Shown here one piece after another: positions 7,778-31,778 of a stretch of 64,000 nucleotides of DNA. Position 1 is the first letter of the stretch, and every line of letters starts with the position of its first letter. Below the pieces are notes generated by a model, which saw only the letters and a program-made list of their open reading frames with translations, made no database searches and had not been told where the DNA came from. Origin of the DNA: Bacteroidia bacterium. GTDB taxonomy: Bacteria > Bacteroidota > Bacteroidia > 2-12-FULL-35-15. Location: positions 197,658-261,657 of the forward strand of contig JBJMLR010000009.1 of NCBI GenBank assembly GCA_045805205.1, in the 5' to 3' direction. The position numbers and the translations under genes are program-made.

Positions 7778-8904
7778 AACCGGCTTCCGAGTTTCGGTAC
7801 CATCTGATCTTTCCATTCTTTAAAAGTTCCGGCGATGATCTGGTTCCGTGCCTCGCCGACCAACCACAAATAAAAAGCCAGATTATGAATACTGGCAATT
7901 TGCGCAGCCAGAAGCTCCTGCGAATGTACAAGGTGCCGCAGGTAAGCCTTGCTGTATGCCTTATCCACGTATGAGGTTCCATCGGGGTCAAGAGCTGAAA
8001 AGTCGTCCCTCCATTTTTCATTTTTCATGTTCATGATGCCATTTTTGGTGAAAATCAATCCATGGCGGGCATTCCGGGTTGGCATCACACAATCGAACAT
8101 ATCGATCCCAAGGGCAATGGACTCCAGGATGTTGACCGGTGTTCCGACTCCCATCAGGTAACGGGGCTTATCAGCCGGAAGAATATTGCAAACAACTTCG
8201 GTCATGGCGTACATATCCTCGGCCGGTTCTCCCACGGAAAGTCCTCCGATGGCGTTGCCTTCCCGGTTCTGAGCTGCGATGAACGCTGCCGAACGTTCCC
8301 GGAGATCTTTATAAACGCTTCCCTGCACGATCGGAAAGAGTGTCTGACGATAGCCATATTTGCCTTCTGTCTCATCAAAACGGGTGCAGCACCGCTTCAG
8401 CCAGCGATGCGTCATTTCCATCGAATTCTTAGCGTATTCGTATTCGCAGGGGTAGGGTGTGCATTCATCAAAAGCCATGATGATATCGGCTCCGATGGTC
8501 CGCTGGATATCCATGACATTTTCAGGTGTAAAGAAATGCTTGCTGCCGTCAATATGAGAAGTAAATTTTGCACCTTCTTCGGTCAGTTTACGCTGTCCCG
8601 AAAGGGAATATACCTGGTACCCGCCGCTATCGGTCAGCAGAGGACGTTCCCAGCCGTTGAATTTATGCAGTCCGCCTGCTTTTTCGATGATACCGAGACC
8701 CGGACGAAGGTATAAATGATAGGTATTCCCGAGTATGATCTGTGCTTTGATATCATCACGCAGCTCATGCTGGTGGACCGCTTTAACGGTCCCGGCTGTC
8801 CCAACAGGCATAAAAATAGGAGTCCGGATGATCCCATGGTCAGTCGTGATCTCTCCTGCACGGGCTTTAGAATTGGGGTCGGTATGGGAAATGCTGAAAT
8901 TCAT
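7774..8904 (-). CDS. tgt: queuine tRNA-ribosyltransferase (tRNA-guanine transglycosylase)
   Basis: 376 aa. ARAGEITTDHGIIRTPIFMPVGT and GLSVGEP are typical of Tgt. Zinc-binding C..C..C...H lies near the C-terminus. Confidence 0.9.
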   Translation of the reverse strand: MNFSISHTDPNSKARAGEITTDHGIIRTPIFMPVGTAGTVKAVHQHELRDDIKAQIILGNTYHLYLRPGLGIIEKAGGLHKFNGWERPLLTDSGGYQVYSLSGQRKLTEEGAKFTSHIDGSKHFFTPENVMDIQRTIGADIIMAFDECTPYPCEYEYAKNSMEMTHRWLKRCCTRFDETEGKYGYRQTLFPIVQGSVYKDLRERSAAFIAAQNREGNAIGGLSVGEPAEDMYAMTEVVCNILPADKPRYLMGVGTPVNILESIALGIDMFDCVMPTRNARHGLIFTKNGIMNMKNEKWRDDFSALDPDGTSYVDKAYSKAYLRHLVHSQELLAAQIASIHNLAFYLWLVGEARNQIIAGTFKEWKDQMVPKLGSRL

Positions 8905-9174
8905 CTACTAATGCCAATTTGTACTAACTTACTAATGGATTTCCATCGTTTTCCGAAACCTTTAGTACCCGAAATCACTACTACTTCTTTCGTAGATTGG
9001 TACAAATTAGTATTTAGTAGTTTAATTGTTAATTACTTTGTTTAAATCCTCGCAAAGATAAGGGAATATAGAAGAACGGATAAATCTATTTTCGTAGCAT
9101 GGATAATATTCATTGGTCGGCTGGTCATTTGCAGATCGTGGATGTGTTTTTAGAGATCGCTTGAAATAGACAAC

Positions 9175-10308
9175 ATGAATTGGGCTGCATTTAAAATATT
9201 TTCTATCGGACTGCTGGTGTTTGGGGTATTCGTTTTTGCCTTGCTGGTCCAGCTGTGGTACTATCTCGGTTATTTTCGCCGCCTTGCATTTTATAAGCGA
9301 ACAGAGATGCCGGAAAACACGCCTCCGGCTTCTATTGTCATTTGTGCCCGGAACGAAGATGATAACCTGGCGGAGTTCCTTCCAGCGGTGTTTGCGCAGG
9401 ATTATCCTGATTTTGAAGTGGTCGTTGTGAACGACTGCTCGTATGATAATACAGCTGATTTTCTAAAGGAGTTCGCTACAAAACATGCGAACCTCCGTAT
9501 TGTCACCATCAAAGAGGACGAGTATTATTCGCATGGAAAAAAAGTGGCGCTGATGATGGGGATCAAAGGTGCGAAAAATGAGCACATGCTGCTCACGGAT
9601 GCCGATTGTAAGCCAAACAGCAAGGACTGGCTGAAGAACATGATGCTTCATTTCAGCGGAGAGACCGAAATCGTGCTGGGCTATGGTGCATATGAAAAGC
9701 AGCCGGGCTTCCTGAATAAGATCATTCGCTTTGATACTTTCCTGATCGCGCAGCAGTTTCTGTCTTTTGCGCTCGCAGGGAAAACCTATATGGGAACGGG
9801 ACGTAACCTTGCGTACAAGAAGTCGCTGTTTTTTAAGATGAAAGGCTTTGCTTCCCATTATCATGTTGAATCCGGTGATGATGATCTTTTTGTGAATGAA
9901 GCGGCGACGAAACGCAATTCTCAGATAGAGGTGAGCGTTGAGAACCATACCATATCCCGGGTTAAAAAGACATTCAAATCCTGGTTTCGCCAGAAGCGCC
10001 GCCATGTGACCACCTTTAAGCTTTATAACGGGGCAAGTAAATTCCGGCTGACAATGATCGCCATGAGCCAGTATTTGTTCTTTATAGCCTTTGTAACGGA
10101 ACTCGTACTGCAATTTCAGCCGGTTGTCGTGTTGTCGCTATTTGCTTTGCGATTATTGATACAAATGATTATCTTTAACAAGTCGATGAAACAGCTGGCT
10201 GAAAAGGACCTTTTGTTCCTTGCTCCGGTCATCGAGATCATCTTAATGGCAGTTTATCCCATGATCACGTTCTCTAACCTGTTCATGAAAAAAAATAAAT
10301 GGAAATAG
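9175..10308 (+). CDS. membrane-bound family-2 glycosyltransferase
   Basis: SIVICARNEDDNLAEFLP ... VVVVNDCSYDNT (GT2 DxD region). N- and C-terminal TM helices. Confidence 0.7.
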   Translation: MNWAAFKIFSIGLLVFGVFVFALLVQLWYYLGYFRRLAFYKRTEMPENTPPASIVICARNEDDNLAEFLPAVFAQDYPDFEVVVVNDCSYDNTADFLKEFATKHANLRIVTIKEDEYYSHGKKVALMMGIKGAKNEHMLLTDADCKPNSKDWLKNMMLHFSGETEIVLGYGAYEKQPGFLNKIIRFDTFLIAQQFLSFALAGKTYMGTGRNLAYKKSLFFKMKGFASHYHVESGDDDLFVNEAATKRNSQIEVSVENHTISRVKKTFKSWFRQKRRHVTTFKLYNGASKFRLTMIAMSQYLFFIAFVTELVLQFQPVVVLSLFALRLLIQMIIFNKSMKQLAEKDLLFLAPVIEIILMAVYPMITFSNLFMKKNKWK

Positions 10309-14342: not shown

Positions 14343-16211
14343 TTATCTCACGATGCTGATCTTTTTGATCACAGTTCCTTCATTCGTTTTACAGCTCAGG
14401 GTATAGATGCCTTCGGCAAAAGTGCCTGCATCGATCACTGTTGTATTAGTAAAAGGAGTTTGTGAGCTGTATACGATCTGCCCGATCGCGTTGCTGATCG
14501 TCATGCTTTTTACCTCTTTGCCGCTTACGGTAATATTGATGAGATCAGTTGCCGGATTCGGGTAAACGGATACTGAATTGTCCAATGCATTTTCGTCAAT
14601 TCCTGTCAGGATATTTGCCATATCTCCAACCAGGTTGATCGGTCGGAAGATCTCCGTGATCCCTGCGGTTGCGCCGCCATACATCTGCGTTGATAATATT
14701 TTAGATGAGCCGGCGAGTCCGAGTGACAATAAACCTGCTGACGCGGTTGGCTTGATCGTTAATGTAATTGTTCCGATCTGCCCGGATCCGTTTAATACCT
14801 GTGTTTTATCATAACGTACTACCGCAGCGTCGATCTTGCCTGAAGCGTAATTGTCTTTGGTGATCATCAATTCGTTCGATGCATTTCCGAGCCAGTTGGT
14901 GGAAAGGTTTACGGAAACGGAGCCAGCGACGATCTGAGAAGGATCATAATTTATGGTGAAGGAATACCCGTAAAGTGTTCCGATCGGTTTTGCAGATGAC
15001 CCAAGATAGATCGGTGCGGTTACGGTTGTTCCTGCATAGGCAGAAGCTCCCGCGAACTGGATATACATTGTAGGATCAGCAGCAGTTGCTTCCGGCATTG
15101 CAGAAACGTTATTGTGTGTGTTATGACGCATGCCGTAGTTTGCATTGATCGCCGTCATGTCGCTGTTGTTGATCGTGCTGTCGCCATTGCTGTCGGCATA
15201 CTTCATGTTCAGAAGATCCTGGAGGTACATGAAATCGCTGAAGAAATTCGGCCAGTCAGTACAAGGCTGTGAAGTAAAGCTATTGCTTGCGGACGGACGT
15301 GCAGTTCCGGTTTGTCCATAATACATTCCCAGCGGAAAAATATCTTCCATATTTACTTCCCCGTCGCGGTTACAATCTCCGGCCCACACGCTGCAGTCGG
15401 AAACGATCTTCACTCCGTAGGTAGTATCGGTAGAAACGCCGTCGGAAATGATCACACGTGCAACATACGTTCCGAGCGCGCTGTAAAGGTGCTTAGGAGT
15501 TGCGGCAGTAGACGTATTTGCTGCTCCTGATGCAGGATCGCCGAAGTCCCAGTTATAGGATGTTGGAGTGCCGGTGTAATATACGGACATCATTGTGGAG
15601 TCGCCATAGCAGTTGCCGTTGATGTTTGAATACATGGTCGCATCGAGGCAATTCACAGCAACATTGATCAGCTGTGTTGATGTATCTGCCATCGATCCGC
15701 TGGTAGTAATGAGTGTTACGAGATAAGAGCCCGGACCCGGATAAAGGTGATAAGGAGCCGAAGCAGTGGAAGTATTATTTACTCCTGATGCAGGATCGCC
15801 GAAATTCCAGGAAGGAGTTCCGCCGCCGATGCTTTCATCGGTAAAATACATATAGTTGGAACCACCGCACCGGCTGCTGAAATCAGCCCCGAAGCAGTTG
15901 GTCCCTACCGTAATGATCTGTGTCTGGTAATCCCACTCAGCTCCTATGTTTACAAATAAGGTTACATAGTAAGTACCGGCAACAGGATACACGTGAAAGG
16001 TTGCAGTGTCGTGGTTAATGTTGACCATGGAAGTTGAATCGCCGAAATCCCAGGTATAAATCGCCATTTGGTCCTGTGCATAGAACCAAACCGTATCTCC
16101 CGCACAGGCGTTTGTGTGAGAGAAGGTTGCATTACATGCTTTTGCGGCATTTGCGCCGACGAAAAAAGCGACTAAGGCAACCAGCGTTTTTAAGAGTGTA
16201 AGTTTTTTCAT
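14343..16211 (-). CDS. PKD-domain protein with dockerin-like and cohesin-like segments and a T9SS C-terminal sorting domain
   Basis: Three WDFGD/NFGDP PKD signatures. CNRDGEVNMEDIF is a dockerin-like Ca-binding loop. C-terminus VYPNPATDLINI...GIYTLSCKT is a T9SS CTD. Confidence 0.65.
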   Translation of the reverse strand: MKKLTLLKTLVALVAFFVGANAAKACNATFSHTNACAGDTVWFYAQDQMAIYTWDFGDSTSMVNINHDTATFHVYPVAGTYYVTLFVNIGAEWDYQTQIITVGTNCFGADFSSRCGGSNYMYFTDESIGGGTPSWNFGDPASGVNNTSTASAPYHLYPGPGSYLVTLITTSGSMADTSTQLINVAVNCLDATMYSNINGNCYGDSTMMSVYYTGTPTSYNWDFGDPASGAANTSTAATPKHLYSALGTYVARVIISDGVSTDTTYGVKIVSDCSVWAGDCNRDGEVNMEDIFPLGMYYGQTGTARPSASNSFTSQPCTDWPNFFSDFMYLQDLLNMKYADSNGDSTINNSDMTAINANYGMRHNTHNNVSAMPEATAADPTMYIQFAGASAYAGTTVTAPIYLGSSAKPIGTLYGYSFTINYDPSQIVAGSVSVNLSTNWLGNASNELMITKDNYASGKIDAAVVRYDKTQVLNGSGQIGTITLTIKPTASAGLLSLGLAGSSKILSTQMYGGATAGITEIFRPINLVGDMANILTGIDENALDNSVSVYPNPATDLINITVSGKEVKSMTISNAIGQIVYSSQTPFTNTTVIDAGTFAEGIYTLSCKTNEGTVIKKISIVR

Positions 16212-18897: not shown

Positions 18898-21714
18898 ATG
18901 CCAAGAGATAATTCCATAAAATCAGTCCTCATCATCGGAAGCGGTCCAATCGTGATCGGACAAGCCTGCGAATTTGACTATTCCGGCTCACAGGCCGCAC
19001 GTTCACTCAGAGAGGAAGGGATCAGGGTAACGCTGATCAACTCCAACCCGGCGACGATCATGACGGATAAAGTAACTGCGGAGAATATTTACCTGCTGCC
19101 GCTGGAAGTGAAGTCCATTGTAAAGATCCTGGAAGAAAACAAAGATATTGATGCGGTGCTGCCGACCATGGGCGGACAGACGGCCCTGAACCTCGCAATG
19201 AAATGCGATGAAATGGGCATCTGGAAGAAATACAATGTGAGAATGATCGGAGTCGATATCGATGCGATCGAGGTGACGGAGGATCGTGATAAATTCCGTG
19301 AGCGAATGGAAAGCATCGGTGTCGGAATGGCACCTTCCAAAATTGCAAAATCATTCCTGGAAGGAAAAGAGATCGCCCAGGACTTCGGTTTTCCATTGGT
19401 GATCCGCCCGTCCTTTACGCTTGGCGGAAGCGGCGGAAGCGTTGTATACCAGAAAGAAGAATTTGATGCAGCATTGAACCGCGGCCTGCACACGTCGCCG
19501 ATCCACGAAGTACTGATCGATAAAGCGGTGCTTGGCTGGAAAGAATTTGAGCTTGAGTTGTTGCGTGATGCGAATGACAACGTTGCGATCATCTGCTCGA
19601 TCGAGAATTTTGATCCGATGGGCGTTCATACCGGCGATAGCATCACGGTTGCTCCGGCAATGACCCTGAGCGATACCACTTACCAGAAGATGCGGACACT
19701 CGCGATCAAAATGATGCGCAGCATCGGAAATTTTGCGGGCGGATGTAATGTTCAGTTTGCGGTAAGCCCTGATGATGCGGAAGACATTATCGCCATCGAG
19801 ATCAATCCGCGTGTATCGCGTTCATCGGCACTGGCGAGTAAAGCAACCGGTTACCCGATCGCTAAGATTGCGTCGAAGCTGGCGATCGGTTATCACCTGG
19901 ATGAGCTGGAAAATCAGATCACCAAATCGACCTCTGCCTATTTTGAGCCGACGCTGGATTATGTCATTGTAAAAATTCCGCGCTGGAACTTTGATAAATT
20001 CAAGGGTGCGAAGCGTGAGCTTGGCTTCCAGATGAAATCGGTTGGCGAGGTAATGGGGATAGGCCGCTGTTTCCAGGAGGCATTACAGAAAGCTTGTCAG
20101 AGCCTTGAGATCAAACGGAATGGCTTGGGTGCAGATGGAAAAGAAGTGAAGAACCAGGATGAATTGCTGAAAAGCCTGGAGCGTCCGAGCTGGAATCGTC
20201 TGTTCCATATTTACGATGCGATCAAATTGGGGATCTCGATCAAAACGATCCAGAAGCTTACACGGATCGATCCGTGGTTTTTGAACCAGATCGAAGAGCT
20301 GATCATTCTTGAAAGCGAAATTTCTAAATACAGATTAGGAGATCTTCCGAAAGACCTGCTCTATGAGGCAAAGCAAAAAGGGTATGCTGACCGCCAGATC
20401 GCACATTTGCTGAATTGCCTCGAAAGTGAAGTATTCAATCGCCGCCGTGATCTGAATATCAATCGCGTTTATAAGCTTGTCGATACCTGTGCAGCGGAAT
20501 TCGAAGCGAAGACACCCTACTATTACAGTACTTTCGAAGATGAGAATGAAAGCATCGCCTCCGACAAGAAGAAGATCGTGGTGTTAGGAAGCGGTCCGAA
20601 CCGCATCGGACAGGGAATTGAATTTGACTACAGCTGTGTGCATGGCGTATTGGCTGCAAAGGAATGCGGCTATGAAACCATTATGATCAATTGCAACCCG
20701 GAAACGGTTTCTACGGATTTCAACGTTGCCGATAAGCTTTATTTCGAACCGGTGTTCTGGGAACATATTTACGATATCATCCTGAACGAAAAGCCGGAAG
20801 GAGTGATCGTTCAGCTGGGCGGACAAACGGCTTTGAAGCTGGCGGAAAAGCTGGAGCGCTATGGCATCAAGATCATCGGAACGGATTTCAAGTCGCTTGA
20901 CCTGGCTGAAGATCGCGGAAGCTTTTCGACTTTGCTGAAAGAAAATAACATTCCGTATCCGGAGTTCGGTGTGATCGAAGATGCGGAGCAGGCGGTGGAG
21001 CTTTCAAGAAAATTAGGATTCCCGCTGCTGGTTCGTCCGAGCTATGTGTTGGGCGGACAAAGCATGAAGATCGTGATCAATGAGCAGGAGCTGGAGCAGC
21101 ACGTTGTAAAACTGTTGCAGGATCACCCGGGCAATAAAGTATTGCTGGATCATTTCCTGGAAGGAGCGATCGAGGCTGAGAGTGATTCGATCTGTGACGG
21201 AAAAGATAATTACATCATCGGGATCATGGAGCACATCGAGCCGGCAGGGATCCACTCCGGAGATTCATACGCTGTTCTTCCTCCATTCGACTTGAGCGAG
21301 AATGTAATGAAGCAGATCGAGCAGCATACAAAAACGATTGCACTTGCTTTGAATACGGTCGGATTGCTGAACATCCAGTTCGCGATCAAAGATGAAGTGG
21401 TATACATCATTGAAGCCAATCCGCGTGCATCGCGTACGGTTCCGTTCATTGCGAAGGCGTATGATGAGCCGTATGTTAACTATGCAACCAAGGTAATGCT
21501 GGGTGCTAAGGTCAAAGACTTCAAATTCAGCCCGACCAAAAAAGGATATGCGATCAAGATCCCGGTATTCTCCTATGAGAAATTCCCGGAGGTGACCAAA
21601 GAGCTGGGGCCTGAAATGAAATCAACCGGTGAAGCGATCTATTTCATTGATGATCTGACGGATGAGTTCTTTCACAATATTTATTCTGAGAGGAATTTGT
21701 ATTTGAGTAAGTAA
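18898..21714 (+). CDS. carB: carbamoyl-phosphate synthase large subunit (short, about 938-aa form)
   Basis: Two ATP-grasp halves (IIGSGPIVIGQACEFDYSGSQA... and VVLGSGPNRIGQGIEFDYSCVH...). The last ~20 codons are duplicated in the downstream tandem array. Confidence 0.9.
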   Translation: MPRDNSIKSVLIIGSGPIVIGQACEFDYSGSQAARSLREEGIRVTLINSNPATIMTDKVTAENIYLLPLEVKSIVKILEENKDIDAVLPTMGGQTALNLAMKCDEMGIWKKYNVRMIGVDIDAIEVTEDRDKFRERMESIGVGMAPSKIAKSFLEGKEIAQDFGFPLVIRPSFTLGGSGGSVVYQKEEFDAALNRGLHTSPIHEVLIDKAVLGWKEFELELLRDANDNVAIICSIENFDPMGVHTGDSITVAPAMTLSDTTYQKMRTLAIKMMRSIGNFAGGCNVQFAVSPDDAEDIIAIEINPRVSRSSALASKATGYPIAKIASKLAIGYHLDELENQITKSTSAYFEPTLDYVIVKIPRWNFDKFKGAKRELGFQMKSVGEVMGIGRCFQEALQKACQSLEIKRNGLGADGKEVKNQDELLKSLERPSWNRLFHIYDAIKLGISIKTIQKLTRIDPWFLNQIEELIILESEISKYRLGDLPKDLLYEAKQKGYADRQIAHLLNCLESEVFNRRRDLNINRVYKLVDTCAAEFEAKTPYYYSTFEDENESIASDKKKIVVLGSGPNRIGQGIEFDYSCVHGVLAAKECGYETIMINCNPETVSTDFNVADKLYFEPVFWEHIYDIILNEKPEGVIVQLGGQTALKLAEKLERYGIKIIGTDFKSLDLAEDRGSFSTLLKENNIPYPEFGVIEDAEQAVELSRKLGFPLLVRPSYVLGGQSMKIVINEQELEQHVVKLLQDHPGNKVLLDHFLEGAIEAESDSICDGKDNYIIGIMEHIEPAGIHSGDSYAVLPPFDLSENVMKQIEQHTKTIALALNTVGLLNIQFAIKDEVVYIIEANPRASRTVPFIAKAYDEPYVNYATKVMLGAKVKDFKFSPTKKGYAIKIPVFSYEKFPEVTKELGPEMKSTGEAIYFIDDLTDEFFHNIYSERNLYLSK

Positions 21715-22000
21715 TTACAGCGCGTCATTGCGAGTGAGCTAGCGAACGAAGCAATCTGTCGTTTGATTTGACGGATAAGTTCTTTCATAATATTTATTCC
21801 CAAAGGAATTTGTGCCAGAGTAAATAAAATGCCCGTCATCCTGAGCGGAGTCGAAGGAGGGCCTTTTAGCGAACGAAGCAATCTCATCGTTTGATCTGAT
21901 GGATAAGTTCTTTCATGACATTTATTCCAAAAGGAATTTGTATCCGGGTAAATAATTACAGCGCGTCATTGCGAGTGAGTTAGCGAACGAAGCAATCTTA
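21648..22000. repeat. ~113-128-bp tandem repeat x3. Each unit is a copy of the carB 3' end (~20 codons plus stop) followed by the dispersed cgtcattgcgag...cgaagcaatc element.
   Basis: Units translate to DLTDEFFHNIYSERNLYLSK*, FDLTDKFFHNIYSQRNLCQSK* and FDLMDKFFHDIYSKRNLYPGK*. The first unit is the real carB terminus. Confidence 0.85.
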
Positions 22001-22262
22001 TTATAGTGATATTATAAAATGGAAAAAGGTCGGAGGGGATTCCTTCTTTGCCAAAGGTTTTTGGCGGATGAAGGGGTCCTATTTCGTGTGCTGTTGTCTC
22101 TTATAGTGTCTGTCACCACTGCCAGTAAAGATTTAGGCTATCCGAGAGGCGGACTTTTATAACAATTGGATTTGCAAGGCCAAGCCAAGTTAACACAAAA
22201 GCATCTTTGTAGTACGAAATCTTGCCTTTTGAGTAGTGCCGTTACTAATAGTTACTCTTTCT

Positions 22263-23633
22263 TCATTTCTTTTCTTTTATCAATTCCGTAACCTCGTTCG
22301 CTATTATTTTAATATTTTCTGGCTTTAAAACATTTTTAATAGAATCAGATATTTCTTCGTGTGGTGATTTTAGTTTAAGAAATGTGTCAATACCTTTAGA
22401 TGGGTTTGTATTTAATTGGTCTCTCAATGAATTAAACAATTCCATATACTCTGCGTCTTTATGTTCTAAACTGTACAATTCTCTGTATCCAGTCATTGCA
22501 GCAGCAATTGATGCTTTATGATGATATTCTTCAGCAAGTTTTTTTGCAATCTTTTGATTTCTATTTAGCATCCAAATTGCAAATATAAGCGCACCCGCAA
22601 TGCTAAATTGATAAATGAGAAGGTGATAATTGAACTCTTTGCCGCACAACAATAGAATTAACTGCGCTACTCCAAATGCAACAATGTCAGCAATTAACCA
22701 ATTTGTCAGGTTTAATGTTTTATTTTCTAGAGTTTGAAATTCTTTAGTGTATTCTTTTGCCCGTTCAGCAAAAGCATTGTGTAATGAGCTATCTGTTAAG
22801 GCAAGTAGCTTTTGTTCGGCATCAGTTGTTAATTTGCCTAATCTGTTAGCTAATGATTCAACAGTTGCTTTTAGTCCAAGCCCTTCCGTTTCTGTTTCTT
22901 CATCGACAACTTTTTCAAACACAGCTTTATAAAAGCTTCTTAATTTTTTTACTTCTTTTTCGTTTTCAGTTAAGTTTTTATTGAAATCATCTTTAATTTT
23001 GATAATTTGAGTTTTTACTGAATCTCTCCCTTCTTCATCTTCTAATAACAGTTTTTGTGCGGCAATAAGCTCAGTATGTTTACTTTCAATACCGGTATTT
23101 AATTTTTGTGAATCTGCAATCAGAGCAGTAGCTTCAGCAACAAGATTATTTAGACTAGCCTTTGTCGATTCTTTCCCGTCGATACCAATTAATGTTTCCG
23201 TTTTAAATTGATCAACATCGATTTTTACATTTAGGATTTGGGCTTTTATTGATTCTCTTCCTTCTTCACTTTCTAATAAAAGCTTGTGAGCAGAAACAAT
23301 CTCTTCCCGTTTGGCTTTAATATCAATAAGTGCTTCATTAATTACTTTTCTTGTTGATGGGTTTTCTTCTGTACCCACTAAGGTTTCGTTTTTGAATTTT
23401 TCAGCCTCTTCTTTTACTTCTTTTAATATTTGCTGGTCTATACCGGCTTTTACAATTACATTCTTAAATATAGTTTGATTAGATAAATGCTCACCCTCGT
23501 CAACTAAATTCTCTTTATAAAATATGCTGAGTTTGTCAATTTGAGCTTGAATAGCTTTAGTTTTTTTCGTTGTTTCGGTTATTAAAGCAAGAAGTTCTTC
23601 TCTTGTCAGTTCAGGACTATTTTTATCTTCCAT
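22263..23633 (-). CDS. repeat-rich coiled-coil protein with a C-proximal two-helix membrane hairpin (island gene A)
   Basis: 456 aa. About 300 aa of heptad-rich sequence with internal ~65-aa repeats (HKLLLESEEGRESIKAQI and QKLLLEDEEGRDSVKTQI). Two TM helices (WLIADIVAFGVAQLILLLCG and LLIYQFSIAGALIFAIWML). Strongly AT-rich DNA. Confidence 0.5.
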   Translation of the reverse strand: MEDKNSPELTREELLALITETTKKTKAIQAQIDKLSIFYKENLVDEGEHLSNQTIFKNVIVKAGIDQQILKEVKEEAEKFKNETLVGTEENPSTRKVINEALIDIKAKREEIVSAHKLLLESEEGRESIKAQILNVKIDVDQFKTETLIGIDGKESTKASLNNLVAEATALIADSQKLNTGIESKHTELIAAQKLLLEDEEGRDSVKTQIIKIKDDFNKNLTENEKEVKKLRSFYKAVFEKVVDEETETEGLGLKATVESLANRLGKLTTDAEQKLLALTDSSLHNAFAERAKEYTKEFQTLENKTLNLTNWLIADIVAFGVAQLILLLCGKEFNYHLLIYQFSIAGALIFAIWMLNRNQKIAKKLAEEYHHKASIAAAMTGYRELYSLEHKDAEYMELFNSLRDQLNTNPSKGIDTFLKLKSPHEEISDSIKNVLKPENIKIIANEVTELIKEKK

Positions 23634-23726
23634 TTTTATTTAGTTAATTTTAATTCGTTGCTTAAATGTTGAAGGGTTTGCGCAATTATCTACAGCGTTT
23701 CGCGGGCTGGCGCTCGGGCGGTCTTG

Positions 23727-24680
23727 TCATTGCGGTAGTATGTCATTTAGCTTGTCCGCAAACTCTTTTGAATCAGATACTTTTATTGGTTTGATAGTTA
23801 CTTCTTTGTTTTCTTTGTTGAAGTCGCTTATATGTTGAGCAACTAAAGGTGTCAAGTCGGTATTATAAACCAACCAAGCTTCTCCATTTTTGTTTTTAAG
23901 ATAATGTGCTAACTGATGAAATGTATTTAACCCAATTTTACTTCTACTCAGATATTTTGCTTCGATAAAGTACCGTTTATTGTTTTTCAAAAATATTAGA
24001 TCAATCCCTTTGTCCTCAAAATCATTGTTTTGAATGTCTAAGTCGGGGCGATTTCTTAATGCAGCCTCAATACTTTTTTCAAACTCAAAACTATATTCAT
24101 GTGTATCTTTGCTTGAAGAAATGTCTTGGATTTCGTTTTGAATTTCTGCATCCTTGTCTTTATCGGATTTGTATTTGAAAAAAGTGCTGATTAGTCCTAA
24201 TATTACAGTCGCTATTGCAAAAATCGTTGATAACAATTCAAGCCACCAAGTTTCTTTAGATTCGGCGTTTTGATTTTTAATTTTGGGGTTGAATTCTTTT
24301 GGCAACTGTAATTTGATTCGTTCAATTTTGTTTATCAGTTCCTTTCTTTTGGTCAATGGAAGAAATTTGTCCTCCATAAAAGATTCTTCGGTCTTTGTAA
24401 GGATGTCGTCTAGTGAAAGCGGAAAGCTTTGTTTTAGTGTAATTTCTTTAGCGTGAACAAGTGTCGGCAATTCATTAAGCGTAAATGTGGAATCTGAATA
24501 AATAAGTTCTTTGACTGATTGCAAAATTTCGCTCTCAGCATTTTTAATTCTTTCGTTCTGCGATTCTTGTAGCCAAGTCGGAACATACCAAACACCTATA
24601 TAAATGGTCGCAAAAAAACCAAGTATGCTAAATACTGTCCCGAAGTTTGTAAACCATTCTTTAAGTGTCTTTGTATTCAT
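23727..24680 (-). CDS. membrane-anchored protein with a C-terminal PD-(D/E)xK (restriction-endonuclease-like) fold motif (island gene B)
   Basis: 317 aa. TM helices at about 14-36 and about 148-170. The C-terminal GIDLIFLKNNKRYFIEAKYLS fits the hD...hExK core of Mrr/NERD-type nuclease domains. Confidence 0.4.
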   Translation of the reverse strand: MNTKTLKEWFTNFGTVFSILGFFATIYIGVWYVPTWLQESQNERIKNAESEILQSVKELIYSDSTFTLNELPTLVHAKEITLKQSFPLSLDDILTKTEESFMEDKFLPLTKRKELINKIERIKLQLPKEFNPKIKNQNAESKETWWLELLSTIFAIATVILGLISTFFKYKSDKDKDAEIQNEIQDISSSKDTHEYSFEFEKSIEAALRNRPDLDIQNNDFEDKGIDLIFLKNNKRYFIEAKYLSRSKIGLNTFHQLAHYLKNKNGEAWLVYNTDLTPLVAQHISDFNKENKEVTIKPIKVSDSKEFADKLNDILPQ

Positions 24681-24857
24681 AATATTCTACGTGTTGAATG
24701 ATCAACTATTGTTGCTGGTAACGTTTCGCGGCTTGGTGTTCGTTCGGGTTTTTAACTAAAATCATTTTTGCGAAGCCGAATTTTAAGATATTCAAATTTG
24801 TCTTGTGAAGCGAGATGCCCGTAAAGCGCAACGACCGCTGTCATAGGCAGGCAAATG

Positions 24858-26045
24858 TTAGAATGGCAAGCCATCATCTTTGTCTTCCGAAATGTCTACC
24901 GGCATCCATGGATATTTTTCAGTGTCAGTGATAAAATTTCTGGAAGAATTTGTAAATGTGCCCCAAAACTCTACTGGAGTTTCTTCATCAAAATCTGTTT
25001 CGAAAACATTCCCGTCTAATTCTAAGTAGAGGCTTTCTCCTTGTTTTTTGAATCTGCAAGTCACAACTTCAATTAATTTCCCTCTAGCCAAATTGTCTTC
25101 CTTGATTAAGGCTATTTCTTTTGATATTTGCAGCAACACCTTTTCTAATTCTGTTTTGATGACAGCGTAGTTTTTTTCGAGAGATTTTCTGCTAAATGTA
25201 AATCTTATTTGTTTTGTCAATACCACGCTTTCTGGCGTTTTAGTATAAGACGTGGGTGTGGCCTCGGTTACAGAAATTGTATGTTTTGATATTTCAGGAT
25301 ATCCAATAAGAATTTCGTCAGTTTTTAGATTAACAGTTTTTATTGAATACCCCAAAAAGCTTTTTTGTCGTTGTAGTATTGGTGACACAAATGATATAAT
25401 TAACTTAATCCATTCTTCTTTTTTGCTTTGTTTAAAAGTCACCTTACATTCCTCGATTCCCAATGTTACTATTTCCTTATACCAATTTTCCTCAGTATTT
25501 GTTGGCACAGTGTCTGGGCAAGTATAAAAGTCTCGCATCATTTTTTCAATTTCTGATAAGGTGTGAATCGAATTTTGCTTAACTAAGTCGATGTCTCCTT
25601 TTTTTATAGGTCTAAAATGAGCTAAGGAATTCCTCACATTACCAATTTCATCGAGTTTGTTTTTCATGATTTCTCTTGAACCCAAGAAATAGTTTTTGAA
25701 AAACTTCCAATATGCGTCTGAAGTAATTATTCTTATAAGCTCCCCACTCGTCAAGTGGAGTAACGGACTATTAATAACATAACCGAGGTAGGCGTAATTT
25801 TTGTCTTGCGAGAGCCGCTTTTTCGCGATAGCGCCAAGAGTCGAAGTTTCTGCATCATCGCTCGTTATTGAAAGATCTTTCCATTTATCTTGAAATTCAC
25901 TTTTCAGAATTATGAAGACGAAAACCCTTAAGGAATTTTCAATTCTGAATAAAATATTAAGCGCTTCAAAGTATTCAATCTTTAACCAATCCCCTGGCAG
26001 GTCATATAAATTCTTTTCAGTGTTTTTAGCTTCTTTCCAATCCAT
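24858..26045 (-). CDS. HEPN-domain protein, Abi_2 (AbiD/AbiF)/Swt1-like (island gene C)
   Basis: 395 aa. The alpha-helical N-terminal ~160 aa end in IGNVRNSLAHFRPI, an R-x4-H HEPN motif of the RN..AH type seen in Abi_2/Swt1 families. The size is similar to AbiD/AbiF. AT-rich. Confidence 0.4.
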   Translation of the reverse strand: MDWKEAKNTEKNLYDLPGDWLKIEYFEALNILFRIENSLRVFVFIILKSEFQDKWKDLSITSDDAETSTLGAIAKKRLSQDKNYAYLGYVINSPLLHLTSGELIRIITSDAYWKFFKNYFLGSREIMKNKLDEIGNVRNSLAHFRPIKKGDIDLVKQNSIHTLSEIEKMMRDFYTCPDTVPTNTEENWYKEIVTLGIEECKVTFKQSKKEEWIKLIISFVSPILQRQKSFLGYSIKTVNLKTDEILIGYPEISKHTISVTEATPTSYTKTPESVVLTKQIRFTFSRKSLEKNYAVIKTELEKVLLQISKEIALIKEDNLARGKLIEVVTCRFKKQGESLYLELDGNVFETDFDEETPVEFWGTFTNSSRNFITDTEKYPWMPVDISEDKDDGLPF

Positions 26046-26340
26046 CTTTCTATTTGTTTAGTTTGCTTGCCTATAAATTTCTTACTAACCGCAACTCACA
26101 CGCAATCCCACTGCATTTCAATAAATTAATACTCGTATAGAAGCGGATATAAAACGGGTAGAAACGTTTCTACACGGCTATAGAATTAAATCAATTCCAA
26201 TAAATTGACAGGAGGGAGTAGCTCGAATCGTATAGCTAAAATATAATAATTTCCGAAATGCGCAATGTTTATGCCAGCGAATAGGTAAAAACACCTATTA
26301 GAAGAGGAGCAAAATATCGATGTGCGCAGCTTATCATCGC

Positions 26341-26395
26341 CATGGTGAGATTGCTTCGTTCGCTACACTCACTCGCAATGACGCGCTGCAATGAA
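26341..26395. repeat. dispersed ~37-bp element (gattgcttcgttcgctacactcactcgcaatgacgcg), an inverted copy of the elements at 21720-21998
   Basis: About 36 of 38 nt identical to the reverse complement of 21962-21998. It explains the spurious LLRSL..AMTRCN ORFs at 21681-21887 and 26342-26584. Confidence 0.8.
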
Positions 26396-26433
26396 TCGCC
26401 TGGAGCTCTTTTTTCTTACTGCGTTTCCCAACC

Positions 26434-26997
26434 TTACTCTTTTTCTTCCGGAGCAAAATCGACTGAAACATCCTTGATCTTTTCATCCGGACCAAAAGCC
26501 AGGATCATCGATCGGATGGGACTGGATTCATTAGCATTTGTTATCGTCAGATACGTGGACAAAGCCAAAGATCCACCGCTCTGATCCCGGCAGGAATAGG
26601 ATTGCGGATATTTGCCGGCAAATTCGGAAAGGGACCAGGAGGGATCCAATACCACCTGCTCGTCCGAAAGGAATTTCACACCATTGTTGTGCAGGATATT
26701 CAGACTGGTCAGATACATCGCCTCACGGGAATCTCCATAGCTTATTTCAGTTTCCTCCGGATCGATGTATTTCATGGAATCCGGGCTCATTTTGAATTTA
26801 ATTGGTTTTGCAAAACCTTCAATGAGCAGCTGATCAAGCGGCAATGCATCAAATGTACAGGTGCCTGCGGCAAGTTTTTCCATTCGTTCTCTTTCCTGCT
26901 GCTTGTTGTTCTCTACCGAAGTCAATCCTTTGTACACAAGAAAGATGACAAGTCCCAGGATAAAAATTATGATGAATGCTTTCTTGAAGAGTTTCAT
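26434..26997 (-). CDS. hypothetical membrane-anchored protein
   Basis: 187 aa. N-terminal TM (FIIIFILGLVIFLVY). No recognised motif. Confidence 0.45.
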   Translation of the reverse strand: MKLFKKAFIIIFILGLVIFLVYKGLTSVENNKQQERERMEKLAAGTCTFDALPLDQLLIEGFAKPIKFKMSPDSMKYIDPEETEISYGDSREAMYLTSLNILHNNGVKFLSDEQVVLDPSWSLSEFAGKYPQSYSCRDQSGGSLALSTYLTITNANESSPIRSMILAFGPDEKIKDVSVDFAPEEKE

Positions 26998-30917: not shown

Positions 30918-31778
30918 ATGAACTTATTTAGTAAAGAAAACCCTTTTGTTGAGAGAGCAAAATCTCCTCTATATGGGACTTTTATCGTTTCATGGTTAAT
31001 ATGGAATTGGAGAATTGTTCTTACGGTCTTATTCCTTTCCAAGTCCGACTTTCATGGGTTCACTTTAGTTGAGTACATCGCCAATCATTACTTGCATTTC
31101 TGCAATATTTTGTTCGTCCCGTTGTTATTTACTGCCCTTTATTTATTTGCACTGCCTCACATTGATTACTACATATTGAGTTATACTGAAGAAAGAAAAA
31201 GAAGGAGAATAGACAAAAAAATGAAAATCCTAGGTAGTCACTCCGTGAGCGGTAGAGATTACAATGACTTGCTTTTTAAATATGATGCAGAAAGAAAAAA
31301 GATAATTACTATTCAACAGGAATTAACAACCGCCAATACAGAATTAGTTGGTACAAAAAACAAGCTTGAGGGACAAATCAACTCATATAATCAGCTAAAA
31401 ACGATTATAGATACTCACGAAGCGTCGTTAACTAGGCTTAGAAACCGACATCAATCGTCAGGTTTTTTTAATGGCAGATGGAAGAGGGAAGCAAAGTCGG
31501 GAACTCAGGTGTCAGAGCAAGAAGTTAGCATCCAAGCAAATGATTATTACCGTGTCAAGAATCGCGAAAACAAACAAACTCATATACTGGAATTAGTTAA
31601 TTTTGATCCTGATCGAGCTGATTTGGAATTTGCAAAGGTGTCAGTTGATAACACAGAAATTACTATATGCAAATTAAAAATTGTTGGCGACAACGTGGTA
31701 GAAGGAACCGAAGGAAAAGAAGTCGTGACTTATACGCGAAATAAGTATCAACAACAAGATCAACATACTAAAGTATAG
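30918..31778 (+). CDS. hypothetical membrane protein with a coiled-coil segment (AT-rich islet)
   Basis: 286 aa. Two N-terminal TM helices, then a coiled-coil (ITIQQELTTANTELVGTKNKLEGQINSYNQLKTIID). AT-rich DNA flanked by GTGATAATTA-type repeats. Confidence 0.45.
   Translation: MNLFSKENPFVERAKSPLYGTFIVSWLIWNWRIVLTVLFLSKSDFHGFTLVEYIANHYLHFCNILFVPLLFTALYLFALPHIDYYILSYTEERKRRRIDKKMKILGSHSVSGRDYNDLLFKYDAERKKIITIQQELTTANTELVGTKNKLEGQINSYNQLKTIIDTHEASLTRLRNRHQSSGFFNGRWKREAKSGTQVSEQEVSIQANDYYRVKNRENKQTHILELVNFDPDRADLEFAKVSVDNTEITICKLKIVGDNVVEGTEGKEVVTYTRNKYQQQDQHTKV

Follow-up and report, generated by a model that had tools for sequence, protein, structure and literature searches.

A partner-less Swt1-like HEPN gene in a low-GC island of a Bacteroidia bacterium: a putative single-protein ribonuclease with an orphan domain and an acidic tail

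The window analyzed here is a stretch of 64,000 nucleotides from a Bacteroidia bacterium (NCBI GenBank assembly GCA_045805205.1, contig JBJMLR010000009.1, positions 197,658 to 261,657), in which three adjacent genes, here called C, B and A, stand out by their low GC content: 0.346, 0.332 and 0.319, respectively, versus 0.447 for the whole window (Table 1). Our subject is gene C. An earlier note, made from the DNA letters alone, had described the region as an island and gene C as an Abi_2/Swt1-like HEPN protein. The GC values bear out the island, and the open reading frame (ORF) at the position given in the note proved to be genuine; its strand, which the note did not state, is the minus strand. 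The product exactly matches MFL5764336.1, annotated as 'hypothetical protein ACJ77K_10390' in a metagenome-assembled genome of Bacteroidia, on a contig of 262 kb. A homologue search with the gene C protein returned 437 homologues, the best 120 of which are mostly about 393 amino acids (aa) long and span the query from end to end, and several orthologues already carry the NCBI name 'Swt1 family HEPN domain-containing protein'. As set out below, the N-terminal half of the protein is very probably a HEPN domain, followed by a domain that appears to be confined to this family and by an acidic tail reminiscent of the C-terminal tip of SSB.

Table 1. Gene C, its parts and the surrounding features of the low-GC island; positions are those of the 64,000-nt window and residues those of the gene C protein.
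Feature	Position	Strand	Basis or remark
Gene C, complete coding sequence, 395 aa plus stop	24858..26045	minus	ATG start; ORF call, database record
N-terminal segment, residues 1-22; short beta-hairpin (7-15) before the helical core; W3, P17 and W20 conserved	25980..26045	minus	AlphaFold models, conservation
Predicted Swt1-like HEPN domain, residues 23-175; helices 23-57, 70-80, 124-142 and 149-175; insert 81-123 between core helices 2 and 3	25521..25979	minus	Pfam HEPN_Swt1, PADLOC, AlphaFold topology
Upstream conserved motif R34-I-E36-N37-S-L-R40, of E-x3-[KR] type, in the first long helix	25926..25946	minus	Conservation in 64 homologues
Predicted catalytic motif R138-N-S-L-A-H143 (R-x4-H, RN..AH variant)	25617..25634	minus	Invariant in 64/64 homologues; end of helix 124-142
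Family-specific alpha/beta C-terminal domain, residues 176-380	24906..25520	minus	Profile search, AlphaFold model, conservation
C-terminal acidic tail, residues 381-395 (MPVDISEDKDDGLPF), ending L-P-F-COOH	24861..24905	minus	Low pLDDT, tail statistics
5' flank of gene C, 290 nt to the REP-like element	26046..26335	minus	No conserved element detected
Gene B, 317 aa, ACJ77K_10385	23727-24680	minus	Two predicted transmembrane segments; C-terminal ...GIDLIF...YFIEAKY
Gene A, 456 aa, ACJ77K_10380	22263-23633	minus	Long coiled-coil N-terminal part; hydrophobic helices near 305-360
26-nt GC-rich motif, CCGnnCGAnCnCCAnnCCGCGAAACG	23696-23721 and 24722-24747	minus	After the stop codons of gene B and gene C
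REP-like element (ATTACAGCGCGTCATTGCGAGTGAG..TAGCGAACGAAGCAATCT), exact copies	21714-21998 and 26346-26392	inverted	Three copies left, one right of the island

The HEPN call of the earlier note started from the string IGNVRNSLAHF, which is indeed present at residues 134-144; RNSLAH, residues 138-143, is the sole R-x4-6-H of the protein. By itself, an R-x4-H motif is weak evidence: shuffled versions of the gene C protein contain R-x4-H in 13% of cases and R[NDH]x3H in 1.6%. We aligned 64 full-length homologues, 45-88% identical to the gene C protein over its full length, and in this set R138, N139, A142, H143, F144 and R145 are invariant. The motif in gene C becomes significant because R138, N139, A142 and H143 do not vary in any of these sequences. 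The upstream motif behaves in the same way: R34, E36 and N37 are invariant, and R40 is an arginine in 63 of the 64 and a lysine in one.

Profile searches point in the same direction. Pfam gave a single match for the gene C protein, HEPN_Swt1 (PF18731), aligning residues 32-154 to positions 3-102 of the 115-position model (E 7.1e-5, 23.5 bits). The same model is matched by all 64 aligned homologues (E<0.01; best 6.5e-8), and when ten diverse orthologues were scanned singly, nine scored 27.5-32.8 bits and one 27.2. On this profile evidence, the gene C protein is assigned to the Swt1-like HEPN group at the level of the orthologous family. Abi_2 (PF07751), the other half of the name proposed earlier, was matched neither by the gene C protein (E<=1), nor by the 64 homologues (E<=0.01), nor by the ten orthologues (E<=0.1), and we rejected Abi_2 membership, as no profile match appeared in any of the three Pfam scans. 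Thus, the Swt1 part of the earlier assignment stands, while the Abi_2 part, for which the associated abiF RNA was also missing, does not; the accompanying argument from the size of 395 aa, said to lie in the AbiD/AbiF range, carries no weight. In the PADLOC library, the best match is PDC-M34B (E 2.6e-10; residues 30-156 on positions 63-180 of 192), alongside weak matches to Cas13a HEPN models. The NCBIfam model NF053863 for DS11, a CBS-domain anti-phage protein, reaches 23.4 bits (E 2.9e-5) against a cut-off of 260, with model positions 240-303 of 305 aligned to residues 97-168, suggesting that the likeness to DS11 is confined to a shared HEPN-like end.

The predicted structure places these residues where they would be expected. 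The AlphaFold2 model computed on the 64-sequence alignment is confident, with a pLDDT of 89.7 and a pTM of 0.89, and a separate AlphaFold model of residues 1-178 has the same topology as the full-length model; the insert formed by residues 81-123 is partly helical in the AlphaFold2 model. In both models, the motif closes helix 124-142, the penultimate core helix, and the next helix starts at residue 149 or 151. This setting agrees with the alpha-helical N-terminal part that the earlier note had supposed. It had let the N-terminal domain end at the motif, near residue 160; this needs revision, as the boundary lies near residue 175 because a further long helix, 149-175, completes the domain. The note had named the lack of a HEPN match or fold, or a motif in a non-helical context, as what would speak against its call: we found a HEPN profile match, a HEPN-like predicted topology and a helical motif. 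Support for the HEPN fold comes from predicted topology only. Excerpts of a published description of the superfamily (PMC3710099) place the R-x4-6-H motif at the end of core helix 3 or the start of the loop to helix 4, with a polar residue (N, D or H) directly after the arginine, and mention inserts between helices 2 and 3 as well as a common upstream E-x3-[KR]. The motif site, the polar N139, the insert and the E36...R40 pair predicted for gene C match this description. The same excerpts take conservation of the motif as a sign of an active ribonuclease (RNase) and call bacterial versions of the Swt1 family catalytically active. Given the invariant motif, we consider the gene C HEPN domain likely to be catalytically competent.

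What follows the HEPN domain is less familiar. Residues 176-380 are modeled with a pLDDT mostly above 90, and nine positions are invariant among the 64 homologues: P181, N183, W188, E310, A320, G322, E359, P379 and W380, with D317 and N318 nearly so. A profile of the domain searched against 1.84 billion representative proteins gave 220 matches at E<=0.001. Among the 150 of these that were listed, all those long enough to judge carry the domain at approximately residues 175-395 of proteins of about 390-460 aa, the rest being fragments, and no other fusion partner was seen among these 150. The domain has no match in Pfam, and no weak family recurs consistently among 26 members (at most 2 of the 26 share any); nor is there a match in PHROGs, a sequence match in the PDB by single sequence or by profile, or a Foldseek match in the PDB or BFVD. 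Across these databases, residues 176-380 thus present themselves as an orphan domain confined to the gene C family. The earlier note had thought of a sensor or partner-binding domain here, an idea that these results neither back nor contradict.

The protein ends in EDKDDGLPF, a tail that is predicted to be flexible: in the AlphaFold model, the pLDDT is about 70 for residues 381-390 and falls below 50 for 392-395. The ending, on which the earlier note did not remark, is a property of the family. Among the tails of 211 distinct full-length members, 183 end in F and 149 (71%) in PF; L, I, F or V occupies position -3 in 168, and D or E position -4 in 123. As background we took 829 unrelated ORFs from the same loci; a final PF occurs in only 5 of them (0.6%) and a final F in 29. 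In the Bacteroidota, LPF closes each of the 15 copies, and other phyla vary at position -3, a pattern in which host-specific mimicry and plain phylogenetic signal are inseparable here. The ending resembles the C-terminal tip of SSB, DDDIPF, a highly conserved sequence through which essential protein contacts are made (PMC5872125). Like that tip, the tail of gene C is an acidic, disordered peptide with [I/L/V]-P-F-COOH as its last residues; however, the gene C protein has no OB fold elsewhere, and its acidic run is shorter and broken by K or G (EDKDDGLPF). A phage SSB-like protein bearing the SSB tip has been reported as a trigger of the DRT10 defence system.

Two individual tails deserve mention in their own right. 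In locus L063, from Ramlibacter sp. WS9, the family member at 7899-9164 ends in ...NDDDDIPF and so contains the canonical E. coli-type SSB tip DDDIPF. In the Syntrophales locus L038, one of the five background ORFs ending in PF (15071-15478, 135 aa, ...DDDVPF) looks like a genuine SSB and lies 6 kb from a family member (8001-9194) that itself ends in ...VPF; the L038 case would fit mimicry of the host SSB by the tail, as a single anecdote.

A scan of 185,579 species genomes located the gene C family at 70 loci, spread over more than 12 phyla, and the matches extend over nearly the entire protein; the count is a lower bound because the scan was pattern-based. The hosts belong to the Bacteroidota, Alpha-, Beta-, Gamma- and Deltaproteobacteria, Chloroflexota, Planctomycetota, Nitrospirota and Acidobacteriota, and further to Zixibacteria, WOR-3, Gracilibacteria (of the candidate phyla radiation) and one Parvarchaeota archaeon (DPANN). 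The family was absent from 50,697 phage genomes; plasmids gave one match, to the HEPN domain only, and IMG/VR one among 2.9 million contigs. To survey the context, we called ORFs in 69 non-redundant loci and clustered all neighbors, down to 70 aa. No conserved neighbor emerged: the largest non-self cluster occurs in 6 loci, at scattered positions and not beside the family gene. Gaps on both sides of the family genes are typically at least 100 nt, in 31 of 64 loci the family gene and its downstream neighbor share a strand, and the flanking DNA is unconserved between loci, apart from near-identical genomes. Rfam detected nothing in the window at gathering scores and nothing in 21700-26450 at E<=1, the abiF motif RF03085 included. 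We regard gene C as a single-gene module because some 70 loci share no partner gene, flank or non-coding RNA (ncRNA). Where neighbors are recognizable elsewhere, they are heterogeneous, comprising integrases, a resolvase, transposases, MmeI-type and other restriction-modification (R-M) systems, SIR2, MADS, CBASS, Gabija and GmrSD. Five copies (L017, L031, L072, L073 and L077) are split into two to four ORF fragments and are apparent pseudogenes, consistent with a dispensable, possibly costly gene. Overall, the family is a horizontally scattered, accessory single-gene module in variable regions. The only recurrent multi-gene neighborhood of the survey was met in L042, L072 and L074 (3.3-7.9 kb), distant loci with two genes in common (clusters 5 and 6), which lie upstream on the same strand and encode about 970 and about 411 aa.

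The remainder of the island appears to have a history of its own. The gene B family comprises 57 matches, some of them annotated as 'restriction endonuclease' or with a PF04471 domain (Mrr-type restriction endonuclease); judged from these relatives, gene B is a putative membrane-anchored nuclease-like protein that travels alone. Gene A has no match in Pfam or PADLOC and a weak one in PHROGs (4.5e-5), and its family comprises 41 matches, with one relative near an integrase in an unrelated context. Relatives of gene B (in L079 and L080) and of gene A (in L081) stand in unrelated contexts, in which neither the other of the two nor a HEPN gene is present, and none of the proteins encoded downstream of gene C relatives in the 69 loci is related to B or A. 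The island in the window is an accretion of independent genes. The spacers between C and B (177 nt) and between B and A (93 nt) were compared with shuffled sequence on both strands and are no more structured (z 0.1 to 1.5), and the 26-nt motif that they share has no significant secondary structure. An integron-cassette reading, invited by the common strand and by the 26-nt motif after C and B, was discarded for this lack of structure in the spacers. As for expression, the 5' flank presumably holds gene C's own promoter; a promoter and terminator scan, which does not extend to Bacteroidota promoters, showed no enrichment, sigma-70-type sites included.

The edges of the island carry repeats. The REP-like element is a dispersed genomic repeat, since more diverged copies lie at 589-669. 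At the left edge (21646-22010), two further copies of the final 69 nt of carB (21646-21714) follow in tandem a little downstream (from 21759, and at 21887-21955) with 77-87% identity; the REP-like element comes after each copy, an arrangement that looks like the scar of repeated insertion or recombination at the carB 3' end. The island has no integrase, and a metagenome scan with the flanking 187-aa protein found no island-free relatives. Farther along the plus strand, a low-GC gene at 30918-31778 (GC about 0.36) encodes a protein of 286 aa that is hydrophobic in its N-terminal region and matches no Pfam family, perhaps a second, small insertion.

How could a HEPN enzyme encoded by a lone gene be kept in check? 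HEPN RNases such as Cas13, Csm6, RNase L/Ire1 and HEPN toxins use a metal-independent site that becomes competent when two HEPN domains pair. In the gene C protein, such a metal-independent RNase site would consist of R138, N139 and H143, with probable assistance from E36 and R40, and to judge from other HEPN enzymes, it would be competent only upon pairing of two HEPN domains. Control is likely to be built into the protein itself because no antitoxin or partner gene travels with gene C: the enzyme would be held inactive by the C-terminal domain (residues 176-380) together with the acidic, flexible tail ending in [L/I/V/F]-P-F until a cue such as phage infection or replication stress permits productive dimerization, to be followed by RNA cleavage and then growth arrest. 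RNase activity and dimerization are inferred by analogy with other HEPN enzymes, autoinhibition from the missing antitoxin. Gene C is thus probably a self-contained stress or anti-phage RNase, and our favored explanation as a whole, a self-contained, horizontally mobile single-gene HEPN RNase module, has in our estimate a probability of roughly 55%. The chance that it has a defence or conflict role we judge to be about even. A more daring extension, in which the tail acts as an SSB-tip mimic and wires the HEPN RNase to the SSB interactome, is tentative, and we think it rather unlikely. Two variants can be imagined. As a bait, the tail would be gripped and pulled by phage or host proteins that bind SSB tails, which would cluster the RNase or release its inhibition; as a pseudosubstrate, it would plug the arginine-rich HEPN site until proteins of this kind push it aside.

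Several findings weigh against the favored explanation. The gene C protein itself stays 4 bits under the HEPN_Swt1 gathering score of 27.5 bits, which is an operational cut-off and not a biological feature. Foldseek returned no significant match to a solved structure in the PDB, neither for the full model nor for the isolated N-terminal-domain model; two HEPN toxins appear at ranks 3-4, with an E of about 2 and a TMq of about 0.25. The gene C family is not in PADLOC as a system, and PDC-M34, which it matches, is itself a prediction. Literature searches for PDC-M34, PF18731 and 'Swt1-like HEPN' found no paper on the family. Finally, the association with defence genes is only partial because many loci, gene C's own with carB on one side among them, have housekeeping neighbors.

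We would like to place gene C into the context of known systems. Its N-terminal domain matches the Swt1-like HEPN profile and has the RN..AH form of R-x4-H. Excerpts of PMC3710099 describe eukaryotic Swt1 as combining a PIN domain with an apparently inactive HEPN dyad, and bacterial Swt1 versions as fused to AAA+ ATPases, transmembrane helices or helicases and found in R-M operons; by contrast, gene C is a lone gene with a single HEPN domain, an orphan domain of 205 aa and an acidic PF tail. In the part of PMC3710099 considered here, the architectures given for the Abi2/Swt1 clade do not include a partner-less gene encoding a single HEPN domain with this orphan domain and a tail like the SSB tip. 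A precedent for this layout, by analogy, is HEC-08, a single-gene defence protein with an N-terminal HEPN domain in which mutation of the motif histidine abolishes defence (bioRxiv 10.1101/2024.01.29.577857). Both are encoded by one gene and pair a HEPN domain at the N-terminus, bearing Rx4-6H, with a C-terminal region without structural matches. They differ in that the HEPN domain of HEC-08 is of the DUF3644 type and that of gene C Swt1-like, and in that HEC-08 has a zinc-ribbon-like C-terminus and is found embedded in Hma systems, an embedding that gene C lacks.

The resemblance to AbiD/AbiF (PF07751) is one of motif flavor, size and organization: these are single-protein phage-resistance determinants, gene C is likewise a single-gene module, and the 2013 classification, in the excerpts used, unites Abi2 and Swt1-like domains in one HEPN clade (PMC3710099). 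However, the gene C family has neither an Abi_2 match nor an abiF RNA, and its C-terminal half is unrelated. With component B of PDC-M34, gene C shares the HEPN region, its best match in the defence library, whereas PDC-M34B is a HEPN-only protein of about 190 aa from a multi-gene candidate, and no M34A-like partner lies near gene C. Membership in PDC-M34 was rejected for this missing partner, in DS11 for a score of 23.4 against 260 bits, and in the HEPN-MNT type II toxin-antitoxin pair for the lack of a nucleotidyltransferase (MNT) neighbor in the window and of any conserved neighbor in the 69 loci.

Which other explanations could account for these observations? The arrangement in the window invites the idea of one three-gene system, in which a HEPN RNase, a two-transmembrane Mrr-like nuclease and a coiled-coil membrane protein would be co-transcribed: C, B and A are adjacent on one strand, are similarly low in GC and share the GC-rich motif in their spacers. 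The spacers of 177 and 93 nt, the lack of PADLOC matches for B and A, and above all the absence of anything like B or A beside gene C relatives, together with the separate lives of the B and A relatives (L079 and L080; L081), speak against it; the context survey led us to reject a C-B-A operon, and we hold the three-gene system to be very improbable. The same survey bears on the possibility that gene C serves as toxin in a toxin-antitoxin or AbiF-like pair whose antidote is an unrecognized small neighboring gene or a cis-encoded ncRNA. Many HEPN toxins are paired with MNT or other antitoxins. An RNA motif, RF03085, accompanies AbiD/F genes (PMC12165695), and gene C has long flanks of 290 nt on its upstream and 177 nt on its downstream side. 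Set against this, there is no conserved neighbor down to 70 aa, the flanks are unconserved, Rfam gave no match at the gathering threshold or at E<=1, the downstream spacer is no more structured than shuffled sequence, and Abi_2 is not matched, and a toxin pair is very improbable in our view.

More serious is the explanation that gene C encodes an accessory enzyme of RNA metabolism, for instance an RNase recruited by its SSB-tip-like tail to replication or repair proteins, where it would remove RNA at stalled forks or during stress. Several loci have housekeeping neighbors only, the family is practically absent from phages and plasmids, and the acidic PF tail resembles the SSB tip, which recruits many DNA-metabolism proteins. 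Its extremely sporadic occurrence (about 70 of 185,579 species, over more than 12 phyla), the low-GC island, the pseudogenised copies and the recurrence of mobile genetic element and defence genes as neighbors are, however, typical of conflict genes and not of core or niche metabolism, so that we consider this role doubtful. In a last alternative, the HEPN domain would be catalytically dead and bind RNA or nucleotides, as proposed for eukaryotic Swt1, whose HEPN domain is thought to be inactive (PMC3710099, in part), and any activity would reside in the C-terminal domain, where the invariant N183, E310 and E359 and the almost invariant D317 and N318 might together make up a separate site. The invariance of R138, N139 and H143 in 64 of 64 sequences argues against this, as do the reading of motif conservation as activity and the active status given to bacterial Swt1 versions in the excerpts of PMC3710099 cited above; a dead HEPN domain therefore seems highly unlikely to us.

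The favored explanation, a self-contained and mobile single-gene HEPN RNase, would matter beyond this one genome. Cas13, Csm6, RNase L and many abortive-infection systems act through HEPN RNases as their effectors. To our knowledge, how stand-alone HEPN proteins are silenced and switched on is largely unknown. The gene C family is compact (about 395 aa), highly conserved and partner-less, and its putative regulatory part consists of an exclusive domain and an SSB-tip-like tail. If the protein is active, it may allow trigger sensing by HEPN enzymes to be studied conveniently in one protein, and it may be a source of a new fold. Even if it should turn out to be an ordinary toxin, a family of 'hypothetical proteins' from more than 12 phyla would gain a domain-level annotation and a candidate catalytic motif. 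The family would become much more valuable should the tail or the C-terminal domain turn out to be the sensor: mimicry of the SSB tip, if true, would mean that an immune RNase of one protein senses its trigger by a new principle, and the C-terminal domain would in that case represent a novel fold linking engagement of the tail to the pairing of HEPN domains.

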